From positions 407,634 through 471,633 of the forward strand of contig CAWJRN010000018.1 of NCBI GenBank assembly GCA_963845265.1: DNA of 64,000 bases. The letters are read 5' to 3'. The translations under genes were made by a program, and so were the position numbers. The stretch's first letter is position 1. Each line of letters opens with the position of its first letter. Of this stretch, positions 47,040 through 64,000 are shown piece after piece. Source of the stretch: an uncultured Gammaproteobacteria bacterium. Lineage in GTDB: Bacteria; Pseudomonadota; Gammaproteobacteria; Chromatiales; Chromatiaceae. The notes beneath the pieces were generated by a model. That model saw only the letters and a list, made by a program, of their open reading frames with translations. It had not been told where the DNA came from and made no database searches.

Positions 47040-47102
47040 CGCCCGCGGATTAGTCACCACCGAACTAGACCCTTTCCCACCCACCGAATGAGGAGCAACC
47101 AA

Positions 47103-48254: not shown

Positions 48255-48256
48255 CC

Positions 48257-48398
48257 GTAGGGTGGATAAGGCGCGTCGCACTGCGCCGCGAGTTTGCCAA
48301 GCGGTCCATCCGCGCCGCATCCACCGGGGTGTCTTCGGTGGATGCGCTTCGCTTATCCACCCTACCGCCCGGATCACCCCAAGCGCGGGGTGATCCGG
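48257..48398. repeat. REP-like palindromic elements between prpC and acnD
   Basis: GTAGGGTGGATAAG (48257-48270) pairs with CTTATCCACCCTAC (48352-48365), with an internal ATCCACC/GGTGGAT hairpin. A second 12-bp palindrome CCGGATCACCCC/GGGGTGATCCGG spans 48369-48398. Confidence 0.65.
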
Positions 48399-48403
48399 GG
48401 CAC

Positions 48404-48478
48404 GCGACCCTAAGCGACCTGCTGCAATCAGTGATCAAGGCCCACGAGATCCAGGCCGTTCGGGCCCCGGAGATTTGA
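48404..48478 (+). pseudogene. prpD: ~20-codon relic of prpD (2-methylcitrate dehydratase)
   Basis: ATLSDLLQSVIKAHEIQAVRAPEI* contains IKAHEIQ, identical to the conserved PrpD segment (E. coli ...LTAMIKAHEIQGC...), at the position where prpD sits in prpBCD operons. Confidence 0.4.
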
Positions 48479-48490
48479 GAGCATCGAACG

Positions 48491-51079
48491 ATGAACACCA
48501 AACACCGTAAACCCCTGCCGGGCACCGACCTGGACTACTTCGACACCCGCGAGGCGGTGGAGGCCATTGCACCCGGGGCCTACGCCAGACTGCCCTACAC
48601 CTCGCGTGTGCTGGCCGAGCAATTGGTGCGTCGCTGCGACCCCGATGCCCTGACCGATGCCCTGCGGCAGATCGTCGACACCAAACGCGACCTGGACTTC
48701 CCCTGGTACCCCGCGCGCGTGGTCTGCCACGACATCCTGGGCCAGACCGCCCTGGTGGACCTGGCCGGTCTGCGTGACGCCATCGCCGACCAGGGCGGTG
48801 ACCCCGCCAAGGTGAACCCGGTGGTGCCCACCCAGCTCATCGTGGACCACTCCCTGGCCGTCGAGGCAGCAGGCTTCGATCCGCAAGCCTTCGAAAAGAA
48901 CCGCGCCATCGAGGACCGCCGCAACGAGGACCGCTTCCACTTCATCGAGTGGACCAAGACCGCCTTCGACAACGTGGACGTGATCCCGGCGGGCAACGGC
49001 ATCATGCACCAGATCAACCTGGAGAAGATGTCGCCGGTCGTTCAGGCTCGCGATGGGGTCGCGTACCCCGACACCTGCGTCGGCACCGACTCCCACACCC
49101 CGCACATCGACTCGCTGGGTGTGATCGCCATCGGCGTGGGTGGCCTGGAGGCCGAGACCGTCATGCTGGGCCGTCCCACCATGATGCGTCTGCCCGAGAT
49201 CATCGGCGTGAAGCTGACCGGCAAGCGCCAGCCCGGCATTACCGCCACCGACATCGTGCTGGCCCTGACCGAGTTTCTGCGCAATGCCAAGGTCGTCTCG
49301 GCCTACCTGGAGTTCTTCGGCGACGGCGCCCGCAGCCTCACCATCGGCGACCGGGCGACCATCTCGAACATGACCCCGGAGTTCGGCGCCTCCGCCGGCA
49401 TGTTTTCTATCGACGAGCAGACCATCGCCTATCTGAAGCTCACCGGTCGCGAGCCATCGCAGGTCGAGCTGGTCGAGACCTACGCCAAGACCACCGGCCT
49501 GTGGGCCGATGACCTGGCGAATGCCGAGTACGAGCGTGTGCTGGAGTTCGACCTCTCATCCGTGGGCCGCAACATGGCCGGCCCCTCTAATCCCCACCGC
49601 CGCCTGCCCACCTCGGCCCTCGCCGAGCGCGGCATAGCAGGCAGTTGGGAAGAGAAGGATGGCGAGATGCCCGATGGCGCCGTGATCATCGCCGCCATCA
49701 CCTCCTGCACCAATACCTCCAACCCGCGCAACGTGGTCGCCGCCGGTCTGCTGGCCCGCAAGGCCAACGAGCTGGGCTTGACCCGCAAGCCCTGGGTGAA
49801 GTCCTCCTTCGCACCCGGCTCCAAGGTGGCCAAGCTGTACCTGGAAGAGGCGGGTCTGTTGGCGGAGATGGAGCAGCTGGGCTTCGGCATCGTCGCCTAC
49901 GCCTGCACCACCTGTAACGGCATGAGCGGCGCGCTGGACCCCAAGATCCAGCAGGAGATCATCGACCGCGACCTCTATGCCACCGCGGTCCTCTCCGGCA
50001 ACCGCAACTTCGACGGCCGCATCCACCCCTACGCCAAGCAGGCCTTCCTGGCCTCGCCGCCGCTGGTGGTCGCCTACGCCATCGCCGGCACCGTGCGCTT
50101 CGACATCGAGCAGGATGCCCTGGGCACCGACAACGATGGCAACCCGATTAGGCTGAAGGACATCTGGCCCTCGGACGAAGAGATCGACGCCATCGTCAGC
50201 GCGTGCGTGAAGCCGGAGCAGTTCCGGCAGATCTACAACCCCATGTTCGACCTGGGCGCCCGCGAAAAGGCCAAGAGCCCGCTCTACGCCTGGCGCCCCC
50301 AGAGCACCTACATCCGCCGTCCGCCCTACTGGGAGGGCGCACTGGCAGGCGAGCGCACAATGAAAGGCATGCGTCCCCTGGCGGTGCTGGGCGACAACAT
50401 CACCACCGACCATCTGTCCCCCTCCAACGCCATCATGGCCTCCAGCGCCGCCGGTGAATATCTGGCAAAGATGGGCCTGCCGGAAGAGGACTTTAACTCC
50501 TACGCCACCCACCGTGGCGACCACCTCACCGCCCTGCGCGCCACCTTCGCGAATCCCAAGCTGTTCAACGAGATGTGCCGCGACGACCAGGGCGAGGTGA
50601 TCCAGGGCTCCCTGGCCCGGGTGGAGCCGGAAGGCGAGCAGATGCGCATGTGGGAGGCCATCGAGACCTACATGAATCGCGGTCAGCCCCTGTGCATCAT
50701 CGCCGGCGCCGACTACGGCCAGGGTTCATCCCGGGACTGGGCCGCCAAGGGCGTGCGCCTGGCCGGCGTGGAGGCCATCGTCGCCGAGGGCTTCGAGCGC
50801 ATCCACCGCACCAACCTGGTGGGCATGGGCGTGCTGCCCTTGCAGTTCAAGGACGGCGAGACCCGCGAGACCTATGCAATCGACGGCACCGAGACCTTTG
50901 ACGTGATCGGCGAGCCGGCCCCCCTTGCCGAGCTGGTCGTGGTGGTACACCGGCCCAACGGCGAACGGGTCGAGATCCCCGTTACCTGCCGCCTGGACAC
51001 GGCCGAAGAGGTCCACGTCTACGCCGCCGGCGGCGTGCTCCAACGCTTCGCCCAGGACTTTCTGGCCTCCGCGAATTGA
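48491..51079 (+). CDS. acnD: Fe/S-dependent 2-methylisocitrate dehydratase (aconitase family) AcnD
   Basis: The 862-aa aconitase has cluster-ligand contexts ITSCTNTSNP and ACTTCNGMSG. It lies in a prp context followed by prpF. Confidence 0.9.
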   Translation: MNTKHRKPLPGTDLDYFDTREAVEAIAPGAYARLPYTSRVLAEQLVRRCDPDALTDALRQIVDTKRDLDFPWYPARVVCHDILGQTALVDLAGLRDAIADQGGDPAKVNPVVPTQLIVDHSLAVEAAGFDPQAFEKNRAIEDRRNEDRFHFIEWTKTAFDNVDVIPAGNGIMHQINLEKMSPVVQARDGVAYPDTCVGTDSHTPHIDSLGVIAIGVGGLEAETVMLGRPTMMRLPEIIGVKLTGKRQPGITATDIVLALTEFLRNAKVVSAYLEFFGDGARSLTIGDRATISNMTPEFGASAGMFSIDEQTIAYLKLTGREPSQVELVETYAKTTGLWADDLANAEYERVLEFDLSSVGRNMAGPSNPHRRLPTSALAERGIAGSWEEKDGEMPDGAVIIAAITSCTNTSNPRNVVAAGLLARKANELGLTRKPWVKSSFAPGSKVAKLYLEEAGLLAEMEQLGFGIVAYACTTCNGMSGALDPKIQQEIIDRDLYATAVLSGNRNFDGRIHPYAKQAFLASPPLVVAYAIAGTVRFDIEQDALGTDNDGNPIRLKDIWPSDEEIDAIVSACVKPEQFRQIYNPMFDLGAREKAKSPLYAWRPQSTYIRRPPYWEGALAGERTMKGMRPLAVLGDNITTDHLSPSNAIMASSAAGEYLAKMGLPEEDFNSYATHRGDHLTALRATFANPKLFNEMCRDDQGEVIQGSLARVEPEGEQMRMWEAIETYMNRGQPLCIIAGADYGQGSSRDWAAKGVRLAGVEAIVAEGFERIHRTNLVGMGVLPLQFKDGETRETYAIDGTETFDVIGEPAPLAELVVVVHRPNGERVEIPVTCRLDTAEEVHVYAAGGVLQRFAQDFLASAN

Positions 51080-51106
51080 CGCAGACTCGCAGGCTGGGGA
51101 ACCCCA

Positions 51107-51135
51107 GTAGGCTGGGTTGAGGAACGAAACCCAGC
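51107..51135 (+). repeat. REP unit GTAGGCTGGGTTGAGGAACGAAACCCAGC
   Basis: It has an 8-bp stem GCTGGGTT/AACCCAGC. It is identical to the copy at 51768-51796 and inverted relative to 51705-51733. Confidence 0.8.
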
Positions 51136-51152
51136 AAGGCAGGCATCCACCG

Positions 51153-51683
51153 TCAACCGAACTCAAGGTCGATTACGTCGCAAGGTGCTGCCCAGTTCTG
51201 ATCGTAAACCCCGCGTGCAATCAACCGATGCAACGAGGAAAACGGCCAGTCCTTTGGATCATCGACGTACCCGTGTTTCACGGGGTTGTAATGGATGTAA
51301 TCCATGTGCATCCGAAAGTCCCGCTCGTCTCGGACCACATGCTCCCAGTAACGCCGCTGCCACAAGCCGCGCTCGGAGCGGCGGGTGCGGCTGGAGGAAA
51401 TCCGCTCCCCGGCAGGGATCTGGCGGGAGAATCGAGCCTTGATTAACTGCCAGCGGATCGGGAAATCGTCGTCATCCGCCGGCAAACGCCACAAGCAGTG
51501 CAGATGATCCGGCAGCACGACCATGGCTTCGATGGCAACCGGATGATCGGCAAGCGTTTGCCGAAACGCCGCCCGCAAAGCAGAGATATGGCTGACCAAC
51601 AGGTCGTTACCCTGCCGCTCGGCCAGCGTCAGGGTGAAGAAATAGGTGCCGCCACGGATTCTGATGCGCTTGTAGGTCCGCAT
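51153..51683 (-). CDS. REP-associated tyrosine transposase (RAYT, IS200/IS605 Y1 class)
   Basis: It has the HUH-type motif VVLPDHLHCLW and the catalytic Tyr context MDYIHYNPVKHGY. It is flanked by cognate REPs in inverted orientation. Confidence 0.85.
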   Translation of the reverse strand: MRTYKRIRIRGGTYFFTLTLAERQGNDLLVSHISALRAAFRQTLADHPVAIEAMVVLPDHLHCLWRLPADDDDFPIRWQLIKARFSRQIPAGERISSSRTRRSERGLWQRRYWEHVVRDERDFRMHMDYIHYNPVKHGYVDDPKDWPFSSLHRLIARGVYDQNWAAPCDVIDLEFG

Positions 51684-51704
51684 GGCGTTCAGCGTAGCCT
51701 CAAT

Positions 51705-51796
51705 GCTGGGTTTCGTTCCTCAACCCAGCCTACAGGGCTACCGCGGGCGGGGAGCCCGCGGTAGCCCGTAGGCTGGGTTGAGGAACGAAACCCAGC
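51705..51796. repeat. REPIN: two inverted REP units around a 14-bp-arm palindrome
   Basis: GCTGGGTTTCGTTCCTCAACCCAGCCTAC spans 51705-51733. GGGCTACCGCGGGC-gggga-GCCCGCGGTAGCCC spans 51735-51767. GTAGGCTGGGTTGAGGAACGAAACCCAGC spans 51768-51796. Confidence 0.8.
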
Positions 51797-51825
51797 TTGG
51801 CATTCACTCCAGAGGTTTATTCCCA

Positions 51826-53004
51826 ATGCCCCACCCACCCCAGATCAAGATTCCCGCCACCTACATGCGCGGCGGCACCAGCAAGGGCGTGTTCTTCAAG
51901 CTGACGGACCTACCGGAGGCCGCCCAGGTGCCCGGCGAGGCGCGCGACAAGCTGTTGCTGCGCGTGATCGGCAGCCCAGATCCCTACGGCAAACACACCG
52001 ACGGCATGGGCGGCGCCACCTCCAGTACCTCCAAGACCGTGATCCTCGCCAAGAGCGAGAAGCCCGATCACGACGTGGACTACCTCTTCGGCCAGGTGTC
52101 CATCGACAAGGCCTTCGTCGACTGGTCCGGAAACTGTGGGAACCTGAGCGCCGCCGTCGGCGCCTTCGCCGTGAGCAACGGCCTGGTCGACCCCGAGCGC
52201 ATCCCCGAGAACGGCGTCTGCGCCGTGCGGGTTTGGCAGAAGAACATCGGCAAGACCATCGTCAACCGGGTGCCGATCACCAACGGGGAGGTCCAGGAGA
52301 CCGGCGCCTTCGAGCTGGACGGCGTGACCTTCCCCGCCGCCGAGGTGCCCGTGGAATTCGTCAGCCCCATCGACGCGGGCGAGGCCGTCTTCCCCACCGG
52401 CAACCTGCTGGACACCCTGGAGGTCCCTGGCGTCGGCAGCTTCCAAGTCACCATGATCAATGCCGGCATCCCCACCATCTTCCTCAAGGCCGAAGACCTT
52501 GGCTACGACGGCACCGAGTTGCAGGAAGCTATCAATGGGGACCCAAAGGCCCTGGAACGCTTCGAGACGATTCGTGCCCATGGTGCGGTGCGCATGGGAC
52601 TGATCCAGGACCTGTCGGAGGCCACCGCACGTCAGCACACCCCAAAGGTGGCCATCTGCGCTGCACCCAAGGACTACGCCGCCTCCAGCGGCAAGGCGAT
52701 CAAGGCGGCGGACATCGACCTGAACGTCCGTGCCCTGTCCATGGGCAAGCTGCACCACGCCATGATGGGCACCGCCGCCGTGGCCATCGCCAGCGCCGCG
52801 GCCATCCCGGGAACCCTGGTGAACCGGGCCGCAGGTGGCGGACCGCGCGACACCGTCACCTTCGGTCACCCTTCCGGCACCCTGAAGGTCGGCGCCGCGG
52901 CCTCCGAGTCAAACGGCGAATGGCGCATCGAGAAGGTGGTCATGAGCCGTAGCGCACGGGTGCTGATGGAAGGCTGGGTGCGGGTGCCTGGGGATGCATT
53001 CTGA
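51826..53004 (+). CDS. prpF: AcnD-accessory isomerase PrpF
   Basis: MPHPPQIKIPATYMRGGTSKGVFFKL is a typical PrpF N-terminus. The start is ATG 51826, because the ORF-track TTG at 51778 lies inside the REP. Confidence 0.9.
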   Translation: MPHPPQIKIPATYMRGGTSKGVFFKLTDLPEAAQVPGEARDKLLLRVIGSPDPYGKHTDGMGGATSSTSKTVILAKSEKPDHDVDYLFGQVSIDKAFVDWSGNCGNLSAAVGAFAVSNGLVDPERIPENGVCAVRVWQKNIGKTIVNRVPITNGEVQETGAFELDGVTFPAAEVPVEFVSPIDAGEAVFPTGNLLDTLEVPGVGSFQVTMINAGIPTIFLKAEDLGYDGTELQEAINGDPKALERFETIRAHGAVRMGLIQDLSEATARQHTPKVAICAAPKDYAASSGKAIKAADIDLNVRALSMGKLHHAMMGTAAVAIASAAAIPGTLVNRAAGGGPRDTVTFGHPSGTLKVGAAASESNGEWRIEKVVMSRSARVLMEGWVRVPGDAF

Positions 53005-53079: not shown

Positions 53080-53328
53080 CTACATCGACTTCTTCACTTC
53101 CTGTAACGCCTTTGCGCAGCCAACCGACATCTCCTCCTTGTGCGTCATAAGGCATTCCTTGATCTTGCCGCCGCCCGGCGCTACCCCGGGACACAGACGT
53201 GCGACGTCGGATTTGCAGTACTTCTCGAGCGCCGCCTTCTCTTTTTCGAGCTTCTCGAACATGGACTGGCCGAGTGCGCCGGCGCTAAATACTCCGAGCA
53301 GGAGAACAAGTGAGGCTCTGACAAACAT
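53080..53328 (-). CDS. Small secreted cysteine-rich-repeat protein (82 aa)
   Basis: The signal peptide is MFVRASLVLLLGVFSAGALG. One repeat has the pattern C-x2-D-x5-C-...-G-x-I-x2-C-L. GGAGAG lies upstream. Confidence 0.65.
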   Translation of the reverse strand: MFVRASLVLLLGVFSAGALGQSMFEKLEKEKAALEKYCKSDVARLCPGVAPGGGKIKECLMTHKEEMSVGCAKALQEVKKSM

Positions 53329-53439: not shown

Positions 53440-53687
53440 TTTAACCTAGAAAGAGCAGTTGGACGGTCGTCAGGGTGCGTTCCGCGTGGTGTCCAGCAAG
53501 GCACAGCGAGGCGGAATAGTCATTCTATTCCAACGAGTTGTAACGCAGCTGGGCGCCGCGCGGGGCGTGCCCTGGCGGCCGTAGCGCCCTTCACCTAGCG
53601 GGTGATCCTCCAATATCTCCAGAACCCGAACAAACTCAGACGTTTGCATGTGAGGCTAAGCGGTCAACTGCTCTTTCTAGGTTTAAA
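53440..53687. mobile_element. ~250-bp MITE-like element with ~22-bp terminal inverted repeats
   Basis: The ends are TTTAACCTAGAAAGAGCAGTTG (53440-53461) and CAACTGCTCTTTCTAGGTTTAAA (53665-53687). There is an internal hairpin GGAATAGtcattCTATTCC and no ORF. Confidence 0.55.
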
Positions 53688-54211: not shown

Positions 54212-54748
54212 TCAGGCGGCGCCAACCGTCGGGCCGGTCGCGCCCGCCTGGGCCATGGTCGCGGCCATCGTGCCAAGCTCCTTATCGAGCATCAGCAGAC
54301 CCTCCGGCTTTTCGCCGAATAGCCTCAGGCGGCCCAATACTTCGCTGACCGTCGCTTCTTCCTCGATCTGCTCGGTGACAAACCACTGCAAGAAGCTGTT
54401 GGTGGCGTGGTCCTTGCTGGCCAGGGCGTGATCCACCAGGGCATGGATGGATGCGGTTACCTCGCGCTCGTGCGCCAGGGTGGCGTCCAGCATCTGCAGG
54501 ACCGTCAAGTCGCCGGCTGGCGGTGCGGCCACCGGCTGCAGGTTGACGTCGGCACCCTGGTCCTTGAGGTAGCGATACATCTTCATGGCGTGGGCCTGCT
54601 CTTCGTAGTGCTTGGCCATGAACCAGTCGCTGACCCCCTTCAGGCTGCCGGATTCGGCGTGCGACGAAAGGGCCAGGTAGAAGTATGCGGAGTACAACTC
54701 CATGTTCACCTGGGCGTTCACCCGCGCTGCCATATCGTTCGAGATCAT
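54212..54748 (-). CDS. Ferritin (non-haem, Ftn-like)
   Basis: It has ferroxidase-site contexts NMELYSAYFYL, HYEEQAHAMKMY and TLAHEREVT. There is an Ala/Gly-rich C-terminal tail. Confidence 0.88.
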   Translation of the reverse strand: MISNDMAARVNAQVNMELYSAYFYLALSSHAESGSLKGVSDWFMAKHYEEQAHAMKMYRYLKDQGADVNLQPVAAPPAGDLTVLQMLDATLAHEREVTASIHALVDHALASKDHATNSFLQWFVTEQIEEEATVSEVLGRLRLFGEKPEGLLMLDKELGTMAATMAQAGATGPTVGAA

Positions 54749-54973: not shown

Positions 54974-55460
54974 TCACTTTACCTTGGCGCGGGACTTGCC
55001 TCGGAAGTATTGCAAGCAAGAGTCATGCCCGTTTGCCAGGCAACCCCCGTGGAGTGCGACCGCGGGCGGCGTAGGCGTGGTAGCCGGCCGGCGGGGAAAA
55101 ATGTAAGCGTCCGGCGACGAAGGGCCGGATGGCGTTCTCGGTGACGTCGTTGTCGAAGGGGATGTGGCCGTCTTCGAGGAAGGTGGTGAGCTGCGGCCAC
55201 AACCCCAGCGCGTAGCCGATGGCCGTGCCGAGCTGCCCCTTGGGCAGGACCCTGCCGACCTTCTCGTCGAGCCAAGCATTGGTTCTCTCCAGGATGGGGC
55301 GGCTATGGGCCTGACGTTCGGCCTTGCGCTCGTCTGCGCAGCAGGTACGCAGGCGCCGCTCCACGGCATAGAGTTGGCCGAACAGGGTGACCACTTGGTG
55401 GGCAGCGGCGGTGTTCTTGCGCCCCTCGGCGGCCTCGACGAACTTGCGCCGCACATGCGT
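54974..55460 (-). pseudogene. C-terminal remnant of an IS66-family transposase (frameshifted, 5' truncated)
   Basis: RRKFVEA...LYAVERR...LPKGQLGTAIGYALGLWPQLTTFLEDGHIPFDNDVTENAIRPFVAGR is followed, in another frame, by ...LANGHDSCLQY, which corresponds to the IS66 C-terminal ...NG.DP..YL. Confidence 0.7.
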
Positions 55461-55704
55461 TCATTGCGCGCGTCTTGACCCTCCTGGCCTCCCCATGCCA
55501 GAGGGGAGAATTGCGCCGGCTAGGCCGGATGCCGCGTCCGGAAGGCTTGCGCATCCACGTTGCCGACCTGGACCGCAATAGCAGGCACAAACAAATCCCA
55601 AGAGAAAGGCCCGGACATCGCTGTCCGAGCCTTGTAGGCCGACCCGGGGCACCTCGGCCCCCGGGGAGACCAGCGGCTTTCCTTGGAGCCGAGCGACAAC
55701 CAAT

Positions 55705-55738
55705 AAAAAGGCCCCGGACCGGTCATCCGGTCGGGGCC
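55705..55738 (-). terminator. Rho-independent terminator of the decahaem cytochrome gene
   Basis: The minus strand reads GGCCCCGACCGG-atga-CCGGTCCGGGGCC followed by TTTTT. It lies 60 nt after the stop at 55799. Confidence 0.7.
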
Positions 55739-55798
55739 TAAACAGGAGGGTTGTGGCGCCGTCCATGGCGCAATAGCAACTCTTCGCGTCGGCGAAGG

Positions 55799-58700
55799 TC
55801 AGTTGGTGGAAGTGCTGAGCCCGCGTTCCGGCCGCGAGAAGGTGTGGCAGGTGGAGCAGTCCTTGCGCTTGTCGTCCACATGCTTTTCATGGATCTTGGA
55901 GAAGCTCATGTTGTTCTCCGAGCCATGGCACTGCCGGCACACCGTGCTGGTCGGTCCCTTGAGCTGGTAGCCGAGCCCACCCTGCAGGTCCATGCGCGCC
56001 GGGCCACCGGAGAGGCTCCCATGGCAGGCACCGCAGGCCAGCGCATCGTTGCTCACCTCCACCCCGTGGTTGATGCTCTGGTAGGTATGCACGCCGACGA
56101 TTTCATAAGGATCATCGACGGCCATATCAGCGGTCTGTTCCAAACCGCTCAGGATCGCCTGCTCGAAGTTGCCGGTGCGGAAGAACTCGAAGGTGGAGTG
56201 GGCAACCAGGGTATCCGTCCTCATATTGCGCGCCACCTTGCCGAGGTGTTCCTTCATCGGCGCCAGCTTGGCATCACGGCTGCTCACGTCGCCATTGGGC
56301 ATGCCGAGCACGTAGGCCTGGCTTCCATTGGGCAGGCCAAGCGCACTCGCCTCCTGATTGCTCAAGGGGATCTGCGGCACGCCGGCCAGGGGCTCGGTCA
56401 GGTAATAGACCTCGCTGGTGCCATCGAACCACTGGTAGGTCGGGATCATGTCCGCGAGCTTGTCCTCCCGGGGCAGCCAGCCACCGCGACCGTTGCAGGC
56501 GGCTGCCGAGTAGTGCGGGTCCTCCCAGTCGCGCGAGACCTCGGTCGCCACGCCCTTGGCAAAGGTCGGGATATGACAGCTCTGGCAGGCGACGTGCTCG
56601 GCATGGGTGTCGCGCGCCGTCCCGTCACGGCTGTCGTAGTCGCCATGGGGCCGCTCACCATGGCATCCGGCGCAGGTCAGTCGCTCCGACACATCGTTCG
56701 GGCGCAGGTCCACGCCCCGACCGAGTACCCGGTGATTGCCAGCCGCATGGCAATCGGCACATACCAGGCCGGCACCACCGTCGCTCATGTGATAGTCGAT
56801 ATGGGTATCGGGAGCGATCAGCGCCGTCGACATGTCGCCGCGCTTGGTGCCATCCGCACCGCCGGCACCGGCATGGCAGTTCAGGCAGCTCTTGCGGGTG
56901 GTTGCATGCACCGTGCGAGCGGCCTCCAGCGCCGAGATGGGCATCAGTGCGGCCGGTACCCCGTCAAGGTCCGGATTGGTCGGGTCCGCGGGCACGAAGT
57001 CGAAGTCGAGCGTCACCGGATCGACGATCGGGATGCCCTCAAGGCCCGTGCGGACGATCGGCGGCGCACTCGGATCCGGCTTACCATCCGCACCCACGCT
57101 GACGATCAGCAGGTCCTCGAAGCCCAGCCCCATGGGGTCCGGGAAGCGCTTGTACTGCTCCTGATGGCACATCATGCAGTCGATGTTGGAGAGCTCCTTG
57201 AGCTGCCCCACATCGTCCAGCCCCAAGAGTTCATCCGCGGTCTTCGGGAAGCGCCCGTTGCCCACGTGGCAGCCAGCGCAGGTGAAGCGCGGACTGGTCT
57301 CATGGGCACCGCAGTAGGTATTGATACCGCTGTAGCCCAGACCAGAGGGACCGTTCCAGCGCTCGCCGGAGGGACCGTCGATATTGGTCACGTAGTCCGT
57401 GGGACCGCTCTGCTGGTAGTGGACCGATCCATGCAGGGAGCGGGCCTCGTCCTCGTGGCAGGCAACGCAGGTCTGTGGTCCGTTGTACGCATTGATGCTG
57501 GCGTGGGGATCACCAGGCACCGGGGCGGTGATCGTGACCGTCACCGAATCGCTGTTGCTGTCGGCGCCGTCGTCGTCGGTGACGACCAGCGAGAAGACAT
57601 GGCTGCCTTCGCCGAGCGTCACGGTCGGGGACTCGACGTCGTCCGGGTTCGGATTGCCGCTCCAGGTCCAGGCGACGACGCTGCCATCCGAGTCGGACGA
57701 ACCAGTGCCGTCGAGGGTCACTTCCATCGCGGTCTCACCCATCGGCAAGACCAAGGACTGATCCGTCCCGGCGTTGGCCGTCGGGGACTGGTTGACCGGC
57801 GGCGCGGCATTGACGGTGATAAGCACCGTATCTGGGGCACTGCTGGCACCGTCGTTGTCGGTGACGACCAGGGTGAAGGTGTAGGTGCCTTCCGTCAGCG
57901 TGACGGTGGGGCTGACCGTGTTGACTGGGTTCGGGTTACCGGTCCAGTTGTAGGTGGTGATGGTGCCGTCCGGATCGGACGAGCCGGTGCCGTTGAGGAT
58001 CACGGCGATGTTGGACTGTCCGGCGGCGATGGTCACCGCCTGGTCCGGTCCGGCGTTGGCCGTCGGGGACTGGTTGACGGGATCGCCGGCACTTGTCTTA
58101 GCGCCCCTGATGGCAGAGAAGCGGCTTCGGTTACCAGCGGCATCGATGGCCTTGACGCGATAGCGGTATCTGGTGCTTGCTGTCAGCCCGGTGTCGCTAT
58201 AGCTCGTGGTCGTGGTTGTGCCCACTTTGGTCGATGGCTTGCACTTCGCATCCTGGCACCGAAACACCATGTAACCGGTCACACCCCCATTGTCCGTGGA
58301 AGCCGTCCAGCTCAAATTGATCTGGCTGGACCCGGCGGCTGTCGCCACGAGGTTGGTTGGCCTCGTCGGCCGCGTCGTATCGGGGCCGAGGTTCACGGTA
58401 ACGACCACCGTATCGGTGTCACTGGCGCCGCTCGGGTCGGTCACTGTCAGGGTGAAACTATGGGTGCCTTCGCCCAGGGACACCGTCGGACTGACCTCGT
58501 CGCTCGGATTCGGCGACCCGGTCCAGCTGTAGCTGAGGGTATCGCCATCGGGATCGCTGGAGCCCATGCCATTCAGCGTAACGTCGATGGTGGTCTGTCC
58601 GGCGGCGAGAGTGCCCGTCTGGTCGGGTCCGGCGTCGGCGGTCGGAGCCTCATTGGCCGGCGGCGGGGCGGTGCGAACGGTCACCGTGGTGTTGCACTCA

Positions 58701-59020
58701 TCGTCGTTATAGGAGTCGTCCACCCTCAGCTTGGTCTCGAAGGTGCCAACCTGCGTATAACGCACGGTGGGGCTGGAGCTCGTGCTGCTGCTCGGAGTGC
58801 CCCCTTTGAGCTCCCACCGATAGGTTCCGTTAGATCCGATGCCGGTGACGGATGCGGACCAATCGACTGTCTCGCCGACATCGACCGTGGGATTCGAGGG
58901 AATGACGGCGCAGTTGGCGTCTGCCGCATAGACGCCGGGCGAAGTAAGCACAGACCCGAGGAGCATTAAGCCCGCAGGAACTCGCCAGTGTGGGTGCACC
59001 TTTGGGTGCCGATTGCTCAT
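55799..59020 (-). CDS. Secreted decahaem c-type cytochrome with N-terminal PKD-like (x4) and FN3 domains (1073 aa)
   Basis: The start is ATG 59020 with AGGAG upstream. The signal peptide is MSNRHPKVHPHWRVPAGLMLLGSVLTSPGVYAA. PKD-type repeats read (ANAGPDQ...LNGTGSSDPDG...W). The FN3 reads PTNLVATAAGSSQINLSWTAS...YRYRVKAID. There are ten CxxCH motifs: CVACH, CAGCH, CMMCH, CLNCH, CADCH, CAGCH, CQSCH, CGACH, CRQCH and CSTCH. Confidence 0.85.
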   Translation of the reverse strand: MSNRHPKVHPHWRVPAGLMLLGSVLTSPGVYAADANCAVIPSNPTVDVGETVDWSASVTGIGSNGTYRWELKGGTPSSSTSSSPTVRYTQVGTFETKLRVDDSYNDDECNTTVTVRTAPPPANEAPTADAGPDQTGTLAAGQTTIDVTLNGMGSSDPDGDTLSYSWTGSPNPSDEVSPTVSLGEGTHSFTLTVTDPSGASDTDTVVVTVNLGPDTTRPTRPTNLVATAAGSSQINLSWTASTDNGGVTGYMVFRCQDAKCKPSTKVGTTTTTSYSDTGLTASTRYRYRVKAIDAAGNRSRFSAIRGAKTSAGDPVNQSPTANAGPDQAVTIAAGQSNIAVILNGTGSSDPDGTITTYNWTGNPNPVNTVSPTVTLTEGTYTFTLVVTDNDGASSAPDTVLITVNAAPPVNQSPTANAGTDQSLVLPMGETAMEVTLDGTGSSDSDGSVVAWTWSGNPNPDDVESPTVTLGEGSHVFSLVVTDDDGADSNSDSVTVTITAPVPGDPHASINAYNGPQTCVACHEDEARSLHGSVHYQQSGPTDYVTNIDGPSGERWNGPSGLGYSGINTYCGAHETSPRFTCAGCHVGNGRFPKTADELLGLDDVGQLKELSNIDCMMCHQEQYKRFPDPMGLGFEDLLIVSVGADGKPDPSAPPIVRTGLEGIPIVDPVTLDFDFVPADPTNPDLDGVPAALMPISALEAARTVHATTRKSCLNCHAGAGGADGTKRGDMSTALIAPDTHIDYHMSDGGAGLVCADCHAAGNHRVLGRGVDLRPNDVSERLTCAGCHGERPHGDYDSRDGTARDTHAEHVACQSCHIPTFAKGVATEVSRDWEDPHYSAAACNGRGGWLPREDKLADMIPTYQWFDGTSEVYYLTEPLAGVPQIPLSNQEASALGLPNGSQAYVLGMPNGDVSSRDAKLAPMKEHLGKVARNMRTDTLVAHSTFEFFRTGNFEQAILSGLEQTADMAVDDPYEIVGVHTYQSINHGVEVSNDALACGACHGSLSGGPARMDLQGGLGYQLKGPTSTVCRQCHGSENNMSFSKIHEKHVDDKRKDCSTCHTFSRPERGLSTSTN

Positions 59021-59253
59021 GGTTCCACTCCTAATTGTTGAGTTTGCGAGCCTGTCCAGCGCACAAGCCCCAATAGGGCCGATGCGGGCAAGAATTCCGT
59101 AGGGGGACAACTCCAACCGGGAGAGATGGACATGCTCGCGAATCACCCATCGACTCCGTGCGGCCGTCTCATCAGCCTGGCTATTCCAGTTGTTGCGGCT
59201 TTTTGGAACTGAGATCTTAAGGTCAGCCGGGCTCGAAGGTCTGGTGGCTCTGT

Positions 59254-59304
59254 GCGAAACGTGCGCCATGTCCCCCTGTTACTGCGCGAAACGTGCGCGA
59301 TGTC
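59254..59304. promoter_or_regulatory. Two 19-bp direct repeats upstream of the cytochrome gene (candidate operator)
   Basis: GCGAAACGTGCGCCATGTC (59254-59272) and GCGAAACGTGCGCGATGTC (59286-59304) match at 18 of 19 positions with 32-bp spacing. They lie 235-285 nt upstream of ATG 59020. Confidence 0.3.
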
Positions 59305-59474
59305 ACACGCAACCGCGGCCAGGAGGATGGGCCAGGCGGTGTTATCGGGGAAGGTGCGGGACGGGCGGGCGATCCTCGAGGCCGGCTGCGCGGCGTCGCC
59401 TCTTGACAGGCAGCGTTCGCGTCGCCTCCCGACGCATGTCGCAGCCGCCCTCAGGAATCCGATGTCCGTACACC

Positions 59475-59507
59475 AAAAAAAGGCCCCGCCAGGGGGCCGG
59501 CGGGGCC
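59475..59507 (-). terminator. Rho-independent terminator after the small secreted protein gene
   Basis: The minus strand reads GGCCCCGCC-ggccccct-GGCGGGGCC followed by TTTTTTT. Confidence 0.7.
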
Positions 59508-59588
59508 TGAAGGATCGCGGAACCATGCGTCCCGCGAGTGGAGTGTCGGTCTCGGTGCTAGGCGGCGCCTATCCGCTCTACGCCAGGG

Positions 59589-59924
59589 TCATTTCCCACA
59601 GGCGTGCTCCCACAATTGGTAGGCGATGGTGTCTTCCTGCGCCGGAACCAGGTCGTCGGCCAGGGGCACGTCGGCCAGCGCTTCGACGCTATCCGCCGAG
59701 CCGAGCTTCTTGTACGACTGGCCCTCACAGTCGAAGAGACGCAGGGAGTAGCTGGTCGTCCCGGCGCGGACCCGCTTTACCAGCAGGGTCGGTTGCTCGG
59801 GGGTCCCGGCCTTCTCGACCACGAAATACTCCGCCTTGAGATCGTTATCGATATCGAGCGAGTACTCGTCGGCGGCGGCAGGTGTACAGGCGAGCGCAAC
59901 GAGTAAGGCAGTCATCAGGCGCAT
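59589..59924 (-). CDS. Small secreted protein (111 aa), unknown function
   Basis: AGGAG lies 7 nt upstream of ATG 59924. The signal peptide is MRLMTALLVALACTPAAA. The mature part has two Cys residues (LFDCEG...WEHACGK). Confidence 0.55.
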   Translation of the reverse strand: MRLMTALLVALACTPAAADEYSLDIDNDLKAEYFVVEKAGTPEQPTLLVKRVRAGTTSYSLRLFDCEGQSYKKLGSADSVEALADVPLADDLVPAQEDTIAYQLWEHACGK

Positions 59925-61357
59925 CGGTTTCTCCTTTCGGCGATACATGAGATTTCGAGGGTAATGGACAACGAGACAGTGGGCGAAAATCTTATCGGGA
60001 CTCCGGCTTGGCGATTCGACGCCCCGCCCTGGGGGAAAAAGGCCCACCTCGCTCGCGTGCACCTCCGGTTCGGCAAAGCGCTTGTTGGTTGGCACGATCG
60101 GCGTGGCCTTGGCATCGTCGTCGCGGTAGGCCTGGCGCAGACGGATGTTGTCAGTGTTGCCATTGGTGTCCGCCGTGTTGACCAGTAGGTTGTTACCCGT
60201 CAGACGGTTGTTAACGTCACCCGTATGGCAGGACCCGCAACCCGGCTCGTTGGCCCAGGGCACGCGCGGCTGGCTGCTGCCGGGCGTGTAGAAGTTCCCC
60301 TGGTCGAGGACGAAGGCACCCGGGCTGGTCGGCGAGACCCCCGCGGAGAAGTCCGCACCCACCTGGAGCATGCTGCTGTGGCAGTCGCTGCACAGCATGT
60401 CGCCGTTGAACATGGCGCCACGCAGGCACTGCACGTTGGTGCCCGGATGACACTGGTAGCAGCTGTTCTCCAAAGCCGTCAGGCGGGCAGGCTGGTTGGT
60501 GACGACTCCCCCTGCGTTATGGGTCGGTGCCGGGATGTTGCGGAACATCGCCACGCCATTCCGGCCCCGGGCCGTGATGGTGCCATGGTTGTTGTGCATC
60601 ACCCGCGAGTTGCTCTGGTGCGCCACCTGGTTGCGCCCGTTGGCCTCCGATCCGGCGGGGCCGGCCTTCGGACCGACGTGTGCACGGTCCAGTGCCGGCG
60701 TGCAGTGGCAGGTCTGACAGACCGCCGGTTGGTTCAACACCAGGGCCTTGTAGGTCAGGCAGCTGTCATCGCCGTCGCCGCTGTTGGCCGCGTTCTTGGC
60801 CTGCACCCGCACCAGCGGATAGGCGTTCTCGCGGCCGTTGTCGTCATAGGCGGCGAACGGCACGCCCGCGCCCTCGAACCAGTTGACATCGGCACCGGCA
60901 GGCCCGTGTCCGCAGTCACCGGGAAGGCACCGGTGGCCAACAGGGTGATTCCCATGCCGCCGGGATAGAACGGGTCGTAAGTACCAGCGGCAACACCGTC
61001 CCAGAAGTTGGTCTTGTAGGTGTAGCCGTCGGCCCTCACGCCGTCGAACACGTCCTGAGTCAAGATCGGGTCGTTCGGGTTGGCGGCGGCCGAATAGGCC
61101 ACGCTCACCCCGGCCGGGTTGAGGGTCGGCGTAGCACCCTTCTGAATGACCTGGGCCAGCAGCACCTGGAACGGCGGCAAGATGCTGGAGATACGAGTAT
61201 CCAGATCACCGCAGTGCATGCCGAGGTCGTTGATCGCCAGCACGCTGTAGCTGGTGTTGGCCACCTTGGCCTGCTGGGCGACCGCCGTGTCCGGGCAGCC
61301 GTCCTGGCTGGTGGAGTTGATCGACACGTTCAGGTTCGACGGGTTACAAGCCTGCAT
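59925..61357 (-). pseudogene. Decayed multihaem cytochrome gene (4 CxxCH): no signal peptide or RBS, internal frameshift, no own stop
   Basis: ORF 60755..61357 and ORF 59589..60863 join by a 1-nt shift near 60864-60885 (...ADTGLPVP|DVNWFEGAGVPFAAYDDNG...). It contains CQTCH, CYQCH, CSDCH and CGSCH. It begins 27 nt after the kinase stop and runs open into the next gene. Confidence 0.6.
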
Positions 61358-61384
61358 AGCAGGATTGACGGTGATAACAACCGT

Positions 61385-62728
61385 TCAAGCGGGCGACCGG
61401 AATGTCACCTCGACGCTCAACCCCCCGCCGTTCTCGCCGTCCAGGAGTGAGATCTCGGCACCGTACAGCTCACAGATCCGCCGGACGATGGACAGTCCCA
61501 GCCCAGCGCCGGACACGGATTGCCCGTCTCGGCGGTAGAAGCGCTCCAGGACCCGCGCTCGGTCCGCCGCTGGGATACCGGGGCCGGAGTCAACCACTTG
61601 CAGTGCGACTCGCCCCACCCGAGTCATGGCCGAAATCCGTACCCGCCCACCCTCGGGCGTGTATTTGATCGCGTTCTCGAGCAAATTGGAGACCAGAACC
61701 CCCAAGGCCGAGGGGTCGATGACAACCTCGGGTAGGTCGCCCTCGGGTAGCGCATCGGTGACCGCGACCGACTTCAGGCGTGCGGCGGCCTGCTTATCCT
61801 CGACCGCTTGCGCCACCGCATCGGTCAAGGACGCGGTGCGGTTTAGCGATTCGGCGGCATCCGGGTCCAGTCGGGCTAACACCAGCAACTGAGAACAGAG
61901 GTGGGTCGCACGGTCCACACCCAAGATGAGTGCCTCCAATGCCTCGGCCCGCTCGGCCGCGTCCTTGCTGCGCTTTGCGATCTGGGCATGGACCCGGATC
62001 ACCGCGAGCGGTGTGCGGAGCTCATGGGACGCGTCCGAGGCAAAGCGCCGCTCGGCGGACAGTGCCTGATCGAGCCGCCCCATCAGACCGTTGAGCGCAT
62101 TGGTCAGCGGCAGGATCTCGGTGGGGACATTGGACTCGTCGATGGGCAGCAACCGCTCTGCCGAGCGCATGCCGATGGCGCCGGCCAGACGGCTCAGCGG
62201 CCGTAGGCCGTCCCTGACGGCAAACCAGATCAACAGCACCGTCAGCGGTAACGACCAGAGGATGGGCTGGAGGGCCTGGATGGTGAGGAATTCGATGAGC
62301 TCATGCCGGATTGCGTAGCTTTGAGCAACGAACAGCGCCCCATCGGGACGACTCGTGGCCAGACCGTAGACCCGCCACTTGGTTTCCCCGGCATCACGGT
62401 CGGAGAATCCAAACGTCACGGCCAGGGGTCCCGGCGGTGCACCGCCGAAGATGCTGATGAGCTCGCCCTCACGCCAGAGTTGGAAGCTAATCTTGCTCTC
62501 GTAGGGATGATCCAGAGGCGACAAGACCTGCGGCAAGCCCTCCAGGCCGGGCAAATTACCCGCCAGCGTAATCTGGCCCAGGACGCGGGCGGTCTGCGCC
62601 AGCTGCGCATCGAGCAGCTCGGCGACCTCATGGCTCGAGCGGTCGAGCGTGATCACGGCGACCGCGAGCCATACGGCCGTCCAGGACCCGAGCAAGAGGA
62701 GGAGCAGGCGGTGGTGGATCGAGCTCAC
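61385..62728 (-). CDS. Sensor histidine kinase (QseC/PmrB-like architecture)
   Basis: It has two TM segments bracketing a ~125-aa periplasmic domain. The H-box is ASHELRTPL, the N-box LLENAIKYT, and the G-boxes DSGPGIP and GAGLGLSIV. Confidence 0.9.
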   Translation of the reverse strand: MSSIHHRLLLLLLGSWTAVWLAVAVITLDRSSHEVAELLDAQLAQTARVLGQITLAGNLPGLEGLPQVLSPLDHPYESKISFQLWREGELISIFGGAPPGPLAVTFGFSDRDAGETKWRVYGLATSRPDGALFVAQSYAIRHELIEFLTIQALQPILWSLPLTVLLIWFAVRDGLRPLSRLAGAIGMRSAERLLPIDESNVPTEILPLTNALNGLMGRLDQALSAERRFASDASHELRTPLAVIRVHAQIAKRSKDAAERAEALEALILGVDRATHLCSQLLVLARLDPDAAESLNRTASLTDAVAQAVEDKQAAARLKSVAVTDALPEGDLPEVVIDPSALGVLVSNLLENAIKYTPEGGRVRISAMTRVGRVALQVVDSGPGIPAADRARVLERFYRRDGQSVSGAGLGLSIVRRICELYGAEISLLDGENGGGLSVEVTFRSPA

Positions 62729-63393
62729 GCACCCGGCCCCGATACCAGTCGGTAGCCGATACCCCGGACCGTTTGGATGCGGTCCTTGCCGAGCTTTCGG
62801 CGCAGGTTATGGATGTGGACCTCCATCGCGTTGCTCCCGACCTCATCCTCCCAGCCGTAACCGGAGGCCTGCAGCTGCGCGCGCGGCACAGCCTGGTCCG
62901 CGTTGCCGAGCAGGGTCTCCAGCAACGCGAACTCCCTGGGCGACAAGCACAGGGGCTGGTCCGCGAGCGTCACTTGATGACTCGCGGCGTCCAGGGCCAA
63001 GTCTCCAACCCGCAGCACCGCATGAGAATTGCCCTGGCTGCGCCGCCTGAGGGCGCGGATGCGAGCGCTGAGCTCGTCCAGATCACAGGGCTTGATTAGA
63101 TAGTCGTCCGCTCCCGCGTCGAGACCCGCAACCCGTTCCGCCACGGCATCTCGCGCCGTGAGGATCAGCACGGGCAGGCAGAACCCATCCCTGCGCAGAT
63201 CGCGCAGCAGGGCGAGCCCGTCGCGGCCGGGCAGACCGAGGTCCAGGACCATCAAATCGAAGTGCTCGAGGCGAAGCGCATGTTCCGCCGCGGCGGCGTC
63301 CTGCACCCAGTCCGCGGCGTAGCCGTCCTGACCAAGGCCCGTCTTCAACCCCGCCCCCAGGGACGCGTCGTCTTCAACGATAAGTATCCGCAT
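62725..63393 (-). CDS. OmpR-family response regulator
   Basis: The receiver domain reads MRILIVEDD...LMVLDLGLPGRDG...ADDYLIKP. The winged helix reads LSPREFALLETL...VRGIGYRL. Confidence 0.9.
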   Translation of the reverse strand: MRILIVEDDASLGAGLKTGLGQDGYAADWVQDAAAAEHALRLEHFDLMVLDLGLPGRDGLALLRDLRRDGFCLPVLILTARDAVAERVAGLDAGADDYLIKPCDLDELSARIRALRRRSQGNSHAVLRVGDLALDAASHQVTLADQPLCLSPREFALLETLLGNADQAVPRAQLQASGYGWEDEVGSNAMEVHIHNLRRKLGKDRIQTVRGIGYRLVSGPGA

Positions 63394-63451
63394 GGTGTCG
63401 GTTCAAGTTCTGTGGTGGTAATGGTTCAAGGACGGCGTGCGCATGGTTAGG

Positions 63452-64000
63452 TCAAGGACTTTCAATGTATCCACCATTTCTGACGTCGTGGCAAATGGTT
63501 ATCGGACCGTGCATCGCGTTTTCGCAAGCCTCCTTACGATCCCGGACCGTCGGATCTCCCGCATCTGATGTGTTGCGCCACACAAGGGCCGCGGCAAGAA
63601 ATGACTGTCCCATCTGAGGCTGAGGGACCACCCTTGTCAACCAGAATTCCAGTCCGGATTTACGTTCCAAACGCTTCTCGATTTCCCGCATCGCCTTCTT
63701 CGCGACCGAAATGCCGGCGTGGTTGACTTTCGTGGCTTTTCGTGCGGTAGGTTTGAGCCCTCTGTAGGTCATGCTGCGCGCCAGACCGAGGCCCTTACGC
63801 GTGCTGTCGATGATTTCGCCCCGCCAGTGGTTTTCCTGCACCCCCCCACAGTCTCTCTACCACCACGGTTGTTTAGCCTCTCCCTTTGTCCGGTTATATT
63901 GTCGACCCTAGAGCCGCGGTGATACGGACGTATGCCATCCGGAGATTTCACACTAATCCCCCCATTTCCAACCACAGGGTAGCTAGTATGAGCGAGAAGA
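63452..64000 (-). pseudogene. C-terminal part of a DDE transposase of the same (ISAzo13-like) family as 29146-29462, degraded, continuing beyond the window
   Basis: ...VVERLWGG / QENHWRGEIIDSTRKGLGLARSMTYRGLKPTARKATKVNHAGISVAKKAMREIEKRLERKSGLEFW parallels the recalled ...NPIERCWGILE.HWNG......MTWKG..P.V......GV.L.KK.M...E.RL.R...LP.W motif. There are stops and frameshifts around 63840-63960. Confidence 0.55.

Follow-up and report, generated by a model that had tools for sequence, protein, structure and literature searches.

This study concerns the right-hand end of a 64,000-nt stretch of contig CAWJRN010000018.1 from an uncultured member of the Chromatiaceae (hereafter the window, to which all coordinates refer), and asks what a set of two-component and multihaem cytochrome genes lying between two transposase relics represents. 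A first-pass annotation had described this segment as a transposase-bracketed island encoding a candidate uncharacterised extracytoplasmic electron-transfer system. Its inventory of five genes and two transposase relics on one strand was confirmed, all of them on the minus strand, as was the lack of porin, Mtr or Ccm genes in the segment. In the direction of reading, the five genes are an intact PmrA-type response regulator of the OmpR family (222 aa, 63393..62725), an intact QseC/PmrB-like histidine kinase (447 aa, 62728..61385), the pseudogene of a nine-haem cytochrome of a family here called MHC2 (61357..~60021), a 111-aa secreted protein (59924..59589) and an intact 1073-aa secreted decahaem cytochrome (59020..55799). 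We propose, and give the composite explanation as a whole about an even chance, that the segment is an eroded and rearranged remnant of a PmrA-type multihaem-cytochrome regulon common in sulfur-oxidising Gammaproteobacteria.

A PmrA-type regulator and its DNA box beside multihaem cytochromes

The regulator (Response_reg and Trans_reg_C domains) and the kinase (2CSK_N, HisKA and HATPase_c domains), whose genes share a 4-nt overlap, resemble the PmrA/PmrB (BasR/BasS) pair of Enterobacteria. PmrA is the best NCBIfam match of the regulator (274.8 bits), and the recognition helix, EVHIHNLR, has H193, H195, N196 and R198 identical to those of Klebsiella pneumoniae PmrA, for which H193 and H195 are the proposed specificity residues (PMC3973317). 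The kinase has two hydrophobic segments around a periplasmic stretch of ~120 aa (2CSK_N, QseC-like); an HExxE motif right after its first transmembrane segment was invariant in 18 orthologues, and a second ExxE motif before the second transmembrane segment was only partly conserved across them. In PmrB, periplasmic ExxE motifs take part in sensing. However, both proteins score below the equivalog cutoffs (330 bits for PmrA; for the kinase, 256 bits with QseC and 185 bits with PmrB, against cutoffs of 475 and 314, respectively), and the periplasmic domain is four times as long as that of PmrB, which has ~30 aa. PmrB senses Fe3+, Al3+ and mild acid (PMC3973317); the PmrB-like sensor gives a hint of iron, which is weak and independent of the ferritin gene flanking the segment.

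When the window proteins were run by tblastn against 81 orthologous loci, the regulator (60–77% identity) and the kinase (56–70% over the full length) were found immediately upstream of a cytochrome gene in ~20 Chromatiaceae loci, at unrelated genomic positions and without mobile-element scars. The module is thus not peculiar to this segment but a trio conserved in these ~20 loci. Furthermore, unsupervised clustering of the genes within 8 kb of the cytochrome in 72 loci returned the regulator and the kinase as the sole recurrent neighbours, and no porin, MtrA-like or secretion gene recurred among the neighbours of these 72 loci.

The spacers between kinase and cytochrome have the 8-mer CTTAAGGT in common, which sits within the direct repeat CTTAAGGTTTTCTTAAGG. 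This corresponds to the PmrA box as defined experimentally in Salmonella and Klebsiella, namely CTTAAG, five bases, xTTAAT/G (PMC3973317). We scored a box as CTTAAG-N5-CTTAAG with at most one mismatch upstream of the cytochrome, one duplicate regulator-linked locus being excluded. By this measure, 17 of the 19 regulator-linked loci carried a box upstream of the cytochrome gene resembling Shewanella octahaem tetrathionate reductase (OTR; see below), compared with 7 of the 60 others; the total was 33 boxes in 1.28 Mb of loci. As for the two exceptions among the 19, the boxes of L002 precede two MHC2 genes, and the box of the other lies just outside the counting window. At L066, a box stands before each of three cytochrome genes. 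Conversely, the loci of Candidatus (Ca.) Thiodiazotropha and Thiohalocapsa marina, which are without this regulator, have no box, and the regulator near the T. marina locus has a differing recognition helix. In most loci, TAGTGT-like hexamers are found ~11 nt downstream of the box, so that the box would overlap the -35 region, a position expected of an activator site. Taken together, the helix and the boxes suggest that this regulator reads DNA as PmrA does, yet it is no PmrA equivalog, and its predicted targets are multihaem cytochromes instead of lipopolysaccharide-modification genes.

The window itself departs from this pattern. No PmrA box was found in the whole 64 kb, where a pattern search allowing up to three mismatches gave only chance-level matches elsewhere than in the segment. 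A position weight matrix built from 35 real boxes, which score 17–38 bits, reached a maximum of 5.2 bits in the window. The sole CTTAAG of the segment (59216..59221) lies 196–201 nt upstream of the decahaem start and has no second half-site. Because the window has no recognisable box, the regulator and the kinase, though intact, probably no longer control the decahaem gene here. With the binding site absent and the second cytochrome a pseudogene, it is unlikely that the five genes work as one regulated unit.

Upstream of the decahaem gene, we observed a pair of 23-nt direct repeats, GACAT(G/C)GCGCACGTTTCGC(A/G)CAG on the coding strand (59250..59304, minus strand), which are 91% identical, spaced by 32 nt and placed 230–285 nt before the gene. 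They are also present in L001, a sister contig 99% identical to the window. These repeats may be a candidate operator for a regulator other than PmrA, for instance of the LuxR/GerE type found beside the orthologues at L002 and L086.

The decahaem cytochrome and its MHC2 companion

The 1073-aa gene has an AGGAG sequence 7 nt before its ATG, a start context that it has in common with its orthologue at L084. According to Pfam, the protein consists of a signal peptide ending VYA|AD (…GVYA|AD), a PKD-PKD-FN3-PKD-PKD array (residues ~40–500) and a haem domain of 567 residues (507–1073; nt 57502..55799) with ten CXXCH motifs; it has no lipobox and no sorting signal. Only one solved structure matched the haem domain, that of OTR from Shewanella oneidensis (1SP3; TIGR04315, PF11783). 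A single-sequence phmmer search gave E = 1.2e-32, and a profile of 18 family members (A1) gave E = 2.9e-65 over OTR residues 20–429 of 443. The eight OTR motifs align in the same order (C518, C581, C615, C712, C754, C783, C812 and C996), and the residues equivalent to OTR N61, C64, K153, KxGD, HM and AKxxPxKxH, among many non-haem residues, are invariant in the family. The haem domain also shares with OTR a mass of ~6.2 kDa per haem, and its gene likewise stands alone without a dedicated membrane partner.

The differences from OTR are also marked. The protein has two added C-terminal haem motifs (CRQCH and CSTCH), a region with a cytochrome c7-like Pfam match, while a partial match to MtrC/MtrF domain II/IV covers 66 residues with the last three haem motifs (40 bits, cutoff 30). 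It also has the N-terminal PKD/FN3 extension of ~500 aa, scores 202 bits with TIGR04315 against a cutoff of 375 (orthologues at L085 and L046: 227 and 168 bits), and its family occurs in sulfur oxidisers linked to a PmrA-type two-component system, whereas OTR comes from a metal reducer. In addition, G55-K56-K57 of OTR aligns with G-E-R (Glu553) followed by an insertion of 6–10 residues; only the distant members P0025 and P0027 keep the G-K with OTR spacing. Lys56, which lies away from the CXXCH motif, reportedly serves haem 2, the catalytic haem of OTR, as an unusual axial ligand (Mowat et al. 2004). The decahaem protein thus departs from OTR in three respects, the model score, the lysine and the architecture. 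Because homology to OTR goes together with a sub-cutoff score and a differing architecture, we place it, by comparison of sequences, in a distinct subfamily of its own within the OTR superfamily. The most likely function of the protein, judged from this homology, would be that of an OTR-type extracytoplasmic redox enzyme. An AlphaFold2 model of the haem domain from the 18-sequence alignment was unusable (mean predicted local distance difference test score, pLDDT, of 45).

An exact-sequence look-up of the 1073-aa protein gave no entry. We scanned one genome per GTDB species with a degenerate pattern and, after confirmation, located the OTR-like cytochrome at 256 genomic places, most of them in Chromatiaceae and Ca. 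Thiodiazotropha. Its carriers include cultured Chromatiaceae (T. marina, with 75% identity, Allochromatium palmeri, Thiocapsa roseopersicina, Thiocapsa sp. KS1, Thiocystis, Lamprocystis purpurea, Chromatium okenii, Rhabdochromatium, Thiorhodococcus and Lamprobacter), a large number of Ca. Thiodiazotropha symbionts, Rubrivivax, some Verrucomicrobiota and Acidiferrobacterales. The contigs closest to the window come from Danish metagenome assemblies and from Chromatiaceae/Thiohalocapsa metagenome-assembled genomes. At E ≤ 1e-20, a protein search with the haem domain returned 429 clusters, Methyloterricola oryzae being the source of one; none bore a functional name, the names being 'hypothetical protein', 'PKD domain-containing protein' and 'cytochrome c3 family protein', and our literature search found no paper on this OTR-like subfamily. 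The description of the system as uncharacterised therefore holds insofar as no member of the subfamily has a described function, but its haem domain is clearly homologous to OTR. Homologues with a known function, such as a tetrathionate reductase, thus exist in part, at a sub-cutoff score and with a different architecture.

The number of N-terminal Ig-like domains varies in the family from none (members of 578–633 aa) to five, and Calx-beta or FN3 domains replace PKD in some members. In many Chromatiaceae orthologues (e.g. L037:9239, L043, L046:9254, P0004 and P0005), a run of 4–8 Asp residues comes right after the predicted signal-peptide cleavage site (…A-DDDDDD…; in one followed by HHHH), a feature that could bind cations or serve in targeting. 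In the window protein, by contrast, the leader and the first PKD domain are shared with the MHC2 family (MxxRHPK…WRVP…). In T. marina, the orthologous decahaem gene has a cytochrome b561 gene (L004:8249-8998) directly upstream, which may link the enzyme to quinones in that species, and downstream of it a regulator-kinase pair that differs and is not of the PmrA type. One report calls a pair of cytochrome b561 and 'octaheme cytochrome c' conserved in purple sulfur bacteria (PMC6374484). We rejected b561 as a regular partner, since it was directly upstream solely in T. marina and its linkage was inconsistent.

The second cytochrome of the segment had been annotated as a decayed tetrahaem gene; it derives instead from a nine-haem protein of ~890 aa. 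Intact MHC2 proteins are encoded at L002, L066, L079, L082 and on a Thiocystis contig. They have ~890–1120 aa and comprise a signal peptide, an Ig-like domain (PKD or Calx-beta), a non-haem domain and nine CXXCH motifs. The non-haem domain is conserved over ~350 aa, contains …INDLGMHCGD… and had no relative in Pfam, NCBIfam or PDB. The parts retained in the window are 65–71% identical to the 891-aa nine-haem protein of L002; tblastn aligned only residues 134–282 (frame -1), 349–409 and 497–740 (both frame -3), and nucleotide homology was confined to the blocks 61331–60891, 60890–60795 and 60765–60065. Compared with the MHC2b gene of L002, the window copy is without the first ~400 nt as well as the upstream spacer and box, has lost 199 nt (causing a frameshift) and a further 330 nt internally, and ends without the last ~500 nt (~150 codons). 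It thereby retains four of the nine CXXCH motifs in two frames, and the signal peptide, the PKD domain, the promoter and the box are gone. Deletions of these sizes cannot be explained by sequencing error. On these alignments, the window copy is a pseudogene of the nine-haem MHC2 family.

The intact loci also reveal the partners of MHC2. The 111-aa protein has a signal peptide for signal peptidase I and two invariant Cys residues (alignment A3, 77% mean identity), but no Pfam or NCBIfam match; its relatives at E ≤ 1e-3 form 119 representative clusters. In L079, L082 and the Thiocystis contig, the gene that directly follows MHC2 encodes a homologue of 111–114 aa. An AlphaFold2 model (pLDDT 85) predicted an alpha/beta fold for which Foldseek found no match in PDB at E < 0.001. 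A reading of this protein as a lipoprotein was rejected because the signal-peptide Cys varies among homologues. The Thiocystis contig has the order MHC2, 114-aa protein, ResA/TlpA/DsbE-like thioredoxin, then a convergent kinase-regulator pair, and the order at L002 is regulator, kinase, box, MHC2a, box, MHC2b, ResA-like thioredoxin, OTR-like cytochrome and LuxR-type regulator. The best matches of the redoxin are ResA, TlpA and DsbE, and the simplest reading is that it is a dedicated disulfide reductase of apocytochromes.

Downstream of the L002 cluster (L002:16778-22724), we observed genes for two large secreted-looking proteins (492 and 1265 aa, no domain matches) and a multicopper oxidase; these, too, may belong to this extracytoplasmic redox neighbourhood. 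The Thiocystis contig also carries a FieF-like ZT_dimer gene and a cluster of cytochrome b561, dihaem DHC and small multihaem genes. By gene content, on which alone the two were compared, it is like Alvin_0019-0026 of Allochromatium vinosum (FieF, dihaem cytochromes, b561, DUF1924, regulator and kinase), which is among the genes most strongly induced on pyrite, with the regulator up 17.7-fold and the kinase 4.5-fold (PMC11267869).

Erosion and mosaic structure of the segment

The segment was compared with the sister contigs L001 and L084. L001 matches the window from 46.8 kb to ~59,474, then diverges at a terminator into a GerE fragment. By blastn, L001 469–551 corresponds to window 59474–59391, and L084 4423–4520 to window 59492–59391. 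On these alignments, the segment is a mosaic, made up of two or more blocks that meet at ~59,475–59,492. Since the sister strain has one half and not the other, the segment was assembled piecemeal. The terminator, predicted to be intrinsic and strong (59508..59481, minus strand; 12-bp stem with 10 GC pairs and a T7 tail), lies 460 nt from the 1073-aa gene and would close a transcription unit of regulator, kinase, pseudogene and 111-aa gene. The terminator-delimited promoter region ascribed to the decahaem gene was thus borne out as to the terminator, but no sigma-70-like promoter was detected: a scan of 54.7–64 kb gave zero matches, and a promoter upstream of the gene is deduced solely from the terminator that precedes it. 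An Rfam scan of 50–64 kb likewise gave zero matches.

A second boundary is located within the decahaem gene. Window 55668–58081 (minus strand), which covers the last PKD repeat, the haem domain and 131 nt downstream, differs from L084 (1556–3969) by 7 mismatches and no gaps (2414 nt, 99.7% identity). In contrast, the 5' third of the L084 gene is only 74–78% identical to the window, and its upstream region, which carries an intact PmrA box at position 108, is unrelated. Position ~58,081 marks a recombination or gene-conversion boundary, and the N-terminal Ig-like arrays have evidently been swapped onto a constant haem domain. Furthermore, the 933 nt downstream in L084 correspond to the first 938 nt of L001. 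The sister strains thus probably carry tandem paralogues, cytochrome A with a box, then the GerE fragment, then cytochrome B, which were probably homogenised by gene conversion across the haem domain.

Two indels of ~386 nt separate the window from L001. At L001:4876-5260 (386 nt; between window 55466 and 55475) is the N-terminal part of a ResA-like thioredoxin gene, cut at the IS66 relic and lost in the window. The second indel is L001:552-937 (window ~59391–59400). We considered whether the two L001 segments are copies of one element and rejected this, as their sequences are unrelated. In L001, the large cytochrome gene was called as two open reading frames (ORFs) of 274 and 675 aa. The ratios of nonsynonymous to synonymous substitution rates (dN/dS) of the intact genes range from 0.2 to 0.5, with 0.2–0.3 for the regulator and the kinase and 0.51 for the large gene against L084, which indicates past constraint on the intact genes.

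Both transposase relics are real but short. The insertion sequence (IS) relic of the ISAzo13 family is a C-terminal remnant (homology 63595..63841, ORF 63841..63452, minus strand) detected with Pfam DDE_Tnp_ISAZ013 below the cutoff (E = 1.9e-5, profile positions 239–306 of 308) and by tblastn to plasmid-borne transposases (E = 5e-10, residues 3–82 of a 129-aa ORF). Its homology ends at ~63,595–63,625, ~200–230 nt from the regulator start; the 58 nt given earlier had been measured from a fortuitous stop. The proposal that the operon promoter is IS-derived is not upheld either, as ~200 nt of non-IS, non-conserved DNA without a promoter match intervene. The IS66-family relic is an internal fragment (DDE_Tnp_IS66, Pfam E = 5.5e-31, profile positions 156–270 of 284; NCBIfam transpos_IS66 110 bits, below the cutoff of 180), whose matching frame is 55454..55023 on the minus strand and not the ORF 54974..55456 reported before. 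No terminal repeats were found at either relic. The GC content of the segment is 0.649, compared with 0.666 in the remaining window, and hence gives no compositional sign of foreign origin. Of the transposase-bracketed island, then, the relics on both sides remain, while the mosaic structure, the absence of a GC anomaly and the different IS families do not fit it.

The ferritin gene (54748..54212, minus strand; Pfam Ferritin E = 3.7e-36) lies outside the module, in the backbone common to the window and L001. No ferritin linkage was found in any other locus beyond the sister strain. This adjacency, being unconserved, is no evidence for the iron theme that it had been taken to hint at.

Further left, the backbone (46789–53004) carries methylcitrate-cycle genes (prpB-like phosphoenolpyruvate mutase/isocitrate lyase, citrate synthase, AcnD-type aconitase and PrpF; annotated via L001), preceded on the left by dxs and lytB (isoprenoid synthesis), biotin synthase and a TRAP transporter; it looks like ordinary chromosomal context. 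Between prpF and ferritin is the gene of an 82-aa secreted protein (53080–53328, minus strand) with a Cys_rich_FGFR repeat (Pfam E = 3.8e-8). An element of ~240 bp resembling a miniature inverted-repeat transposable element (MITE) occupies 53440–53686, with 22-nt terminal inverted repeats (95% complementary) and TTTAA on both sides; in L001 this site is precisely empty (…GCGTTTAAACC…), which makes the insertion a polymorphism between the 99%-identical strains. No second copy was found in the 64-kb window.

Proposed mechanism, rival explanations and significance

In intact relatives, the periplasm-sensing kinase would phosphorylate the PmrA-like regulator in response to its signal, and the regulator would bind CTTAAG-N5-CTTAAG over the -35 region, thereby activating one or both cytochrome families. 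One family would comprise enzymes derived from OTR, with nine or ten haems and a variable PKD/FN3 array fused to them; the other would be MHC2, usually followed by the 111–114-aa secreted protein and the ResA/CcmG-like thioredoxin, which presumably holds the CXXCH cysteines of apocytochromes reduced. The decahaem protein would be exported by Sec and matured by the general Ccm system. We infer its localisation, its substrate and the direction of catalysis: at the haem-2 pocket, the protein would act on a small inorganic compound of sulfur or nitrogen, such as tetrathionate, polysulfide, nitrite or hydroxylamine, the two haems added at the C-terminus would be a port to soluble periplasmic carriers, and the Ig-like array may tether or position the enzyme. 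In this genome, the MHC2 gene is a pseudogene without its promoter and box, the thioredoxin gene was cut by IS66 and later lost, and the upstream region of the surviving decahaem gene is a different one that has no box. Transcription from the regulator-kinase operon probably runs on through the 111-aa gene as far as the terminator.

Several observations weigh against this explanation. The TIGR04315 score is below the cutoff. The Glu and insertion at the Lys56 position, in what is a loop alignment, suggest that the active-site chemistry may differ from that of OTR or that the protein may be a pure electron carrier. The PKD/FN3/Calx-beta arrays fit a surface role better than a periplasmic enzyme. 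The regulator could act in the window through a degenerate site, or on targets beyond the 64 kb. The tandem-paralogue interpretation joins metagenome contigs from two different samples, and the functional assignments of both cytochrome families are deduced from sequence.

A rival explanation is extracellular electron transfer, in which surface cytochromes would exchange electrons with insoluble Fe and S minerals, S0 or electrodes, and Fe(III) or acidity at the mineral interface would be the signal for the PmrB-like kinase. The PKD/FN3/Calx-beta arrays are typical of surface or secreted proteins, and here they have been exchanged between near-identical haem domains, as for surface-binding modules. 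Consistent with this are also the partial MtrC/MtrF and cytochrome c7 matches, the metal and acid sensing of PmrB together with the invariant HExxE of the kinase, and the response of A. vinosum to pyrite, which raises multihaem cytochromes along with the winged-helix regulator-kinase pair Alvin_0025/0026, a candidate counterpart of ours (PMC11267869). There is also a precedent in OcwA, a surface terminal reductase related in fold to NrfA and c554 that keeps nitrite and hydroxylamine reductase activity (PMC7096707). Like OcwA and OmhA of Gram-positive metal reducers, the decahaem protein has the fold of a nitrogen- or sulfur-cycle enzyme and is possibly at the surface and possibly bifunctional (PMC7096707; bioRxiv 10.1101/2022.02.24.481543). 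However, OcwA belongs to a c554/MccA/NrfA-like clade to which OTR is a structural outlier, our PDB search with the haem domain gave no OcwA match, and the organism here is diderm, so that a surface role requires crossing of the outer membrane. For such a crossing, no beta-barrel or porin, MtrA-like decahaem or secretion gene is conserved adjacent to the cytochrome in the 72 loci, and the protein has neither lipobox nor sorting signal. Despite ten haems and the partial MtrC/MtrF match, the region is not a porin-cytochrome conduit of the MtrCAB, PioAB/MtoAB or PccABC type: it has no porin, no lipobox and no MtrA/DmsE-type partner (23 bits, cutoff 192). In addition, the mass per haem is like that of OTR and unlike that of 'peptide-minimised' carriers (PMC7096707), many orthologues (e.g. 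those of 578–633 aa) are without any Ig-like domain, and the regulatory site is missing in the window. Extracellular electron transfer by this system is unsupported because no porin partner occurs in any relative, and we consider it rather unlikely. For the Cys-bearing haem pocket, a functional analogy is offered by MccSep (ExtKL) of Geobacter, a periplasmic pentahaem polysulfide reductase acting on sulfur chains, with a catalytic Cys or Sec near an unusual haem and an Ig-like domain (PMC13510729). We rejected MccSep as a relative, since it belongs to a different family (five haems, a His/Cys haem and selenocysteine) and no homology was detected.

The remaining explanations concern the segment more than the system. 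It could be non-functional debris, in which the intact genes reflect recent decay only and contribute nothing to fitness. The two IS relics, the heavily deleted pseudogene, the loss of the thioredoxin gene and the regulator box, the two ~386-nt indels relative to a 99%-identical strain, the split large gene of that strain and the relatively high dN/dS of the large gene against L084 are all compatible with this. Conversely, it is unlikely that a 3.2-kb ORF with all ten CXXCH motifs and every family-invariant residue would have survived by chance at 65% GC, the near-identity of its 3' 2.4 kb to a second copy suggests that a sequence under maintenance recently underwent gene conversion, a frameshift error in long reads may account for the split in L001, and the regulator and the kinase retain a dN/dS of 0.2–0.3. 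We regard debris as improbable. Less probable by far is a recently acquired island that moved as a unit between two IS elements in the manner of a composite transposon. Transposase relics on both sides, a position of the module that varies by genus and a ferritin flank common to L001 alone are what such an island would leave. However, the relics come from two distinct IS families, and each is a short fragment, internal or C-terminal, with no recognisable ends, the GC content is like that of the remaining window, and a sister strain with only one half points to assembly in pieces.

Beyond the eroded-regulon explanation, we put forward a more far-reaching idea, tentatively and in the expectation that it is more apt to fail than to hold: that Chromatiaceae, Ca. 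Thiodiazotropha and relatives have an undescribed porin-independent extracytoplasmic redox system that exchanges electrons with solid or polymeric sulfur and iron phases such as S0 globules, FeS and pyrite. Its parts would be a PmrAB-type sensor, possibly of Fe(III), acidity or a mineral surface, two families of giant Ig-fused multihaem cytochromes under the control of canonical PmrA boxes, namely the OTR-derived decahaem with its exchangeable PKD/FN3 arrays and the nine-haem protein with its novel non-haem domain, a dedicated ResA-like thioredoxin and the small conserved secreted protein. The window would then represent a lineage in the act of losing this redox system.

These findings bear on the ways in which purple sulfur bacteria and thiotrophic symbionts deal with sulfur and iron in insoluble form, as in the use of external S0, the dark reduction of stored sulfur and growth on pyrite. 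They link an OTR-derived family with members in hundreds of such genomes, another large family of cytochromes and a PmrA-type regulator with its DNA box, three elements previously unconnected in the databases and the full-text literature that we searched. The regulon is testable in the cultivable T. roseopersicina, A. palmeri, Thiocystis and Lamprocystis. The window serves as a natural 'knock-down', whose pattern of decay shows which parts are dispensable, and as an instance of the exchange of Ig-like arrays between haem domains that are identical in other respects. Since the copy in the window is degraded, the interest lies in the regulon that it indicates.

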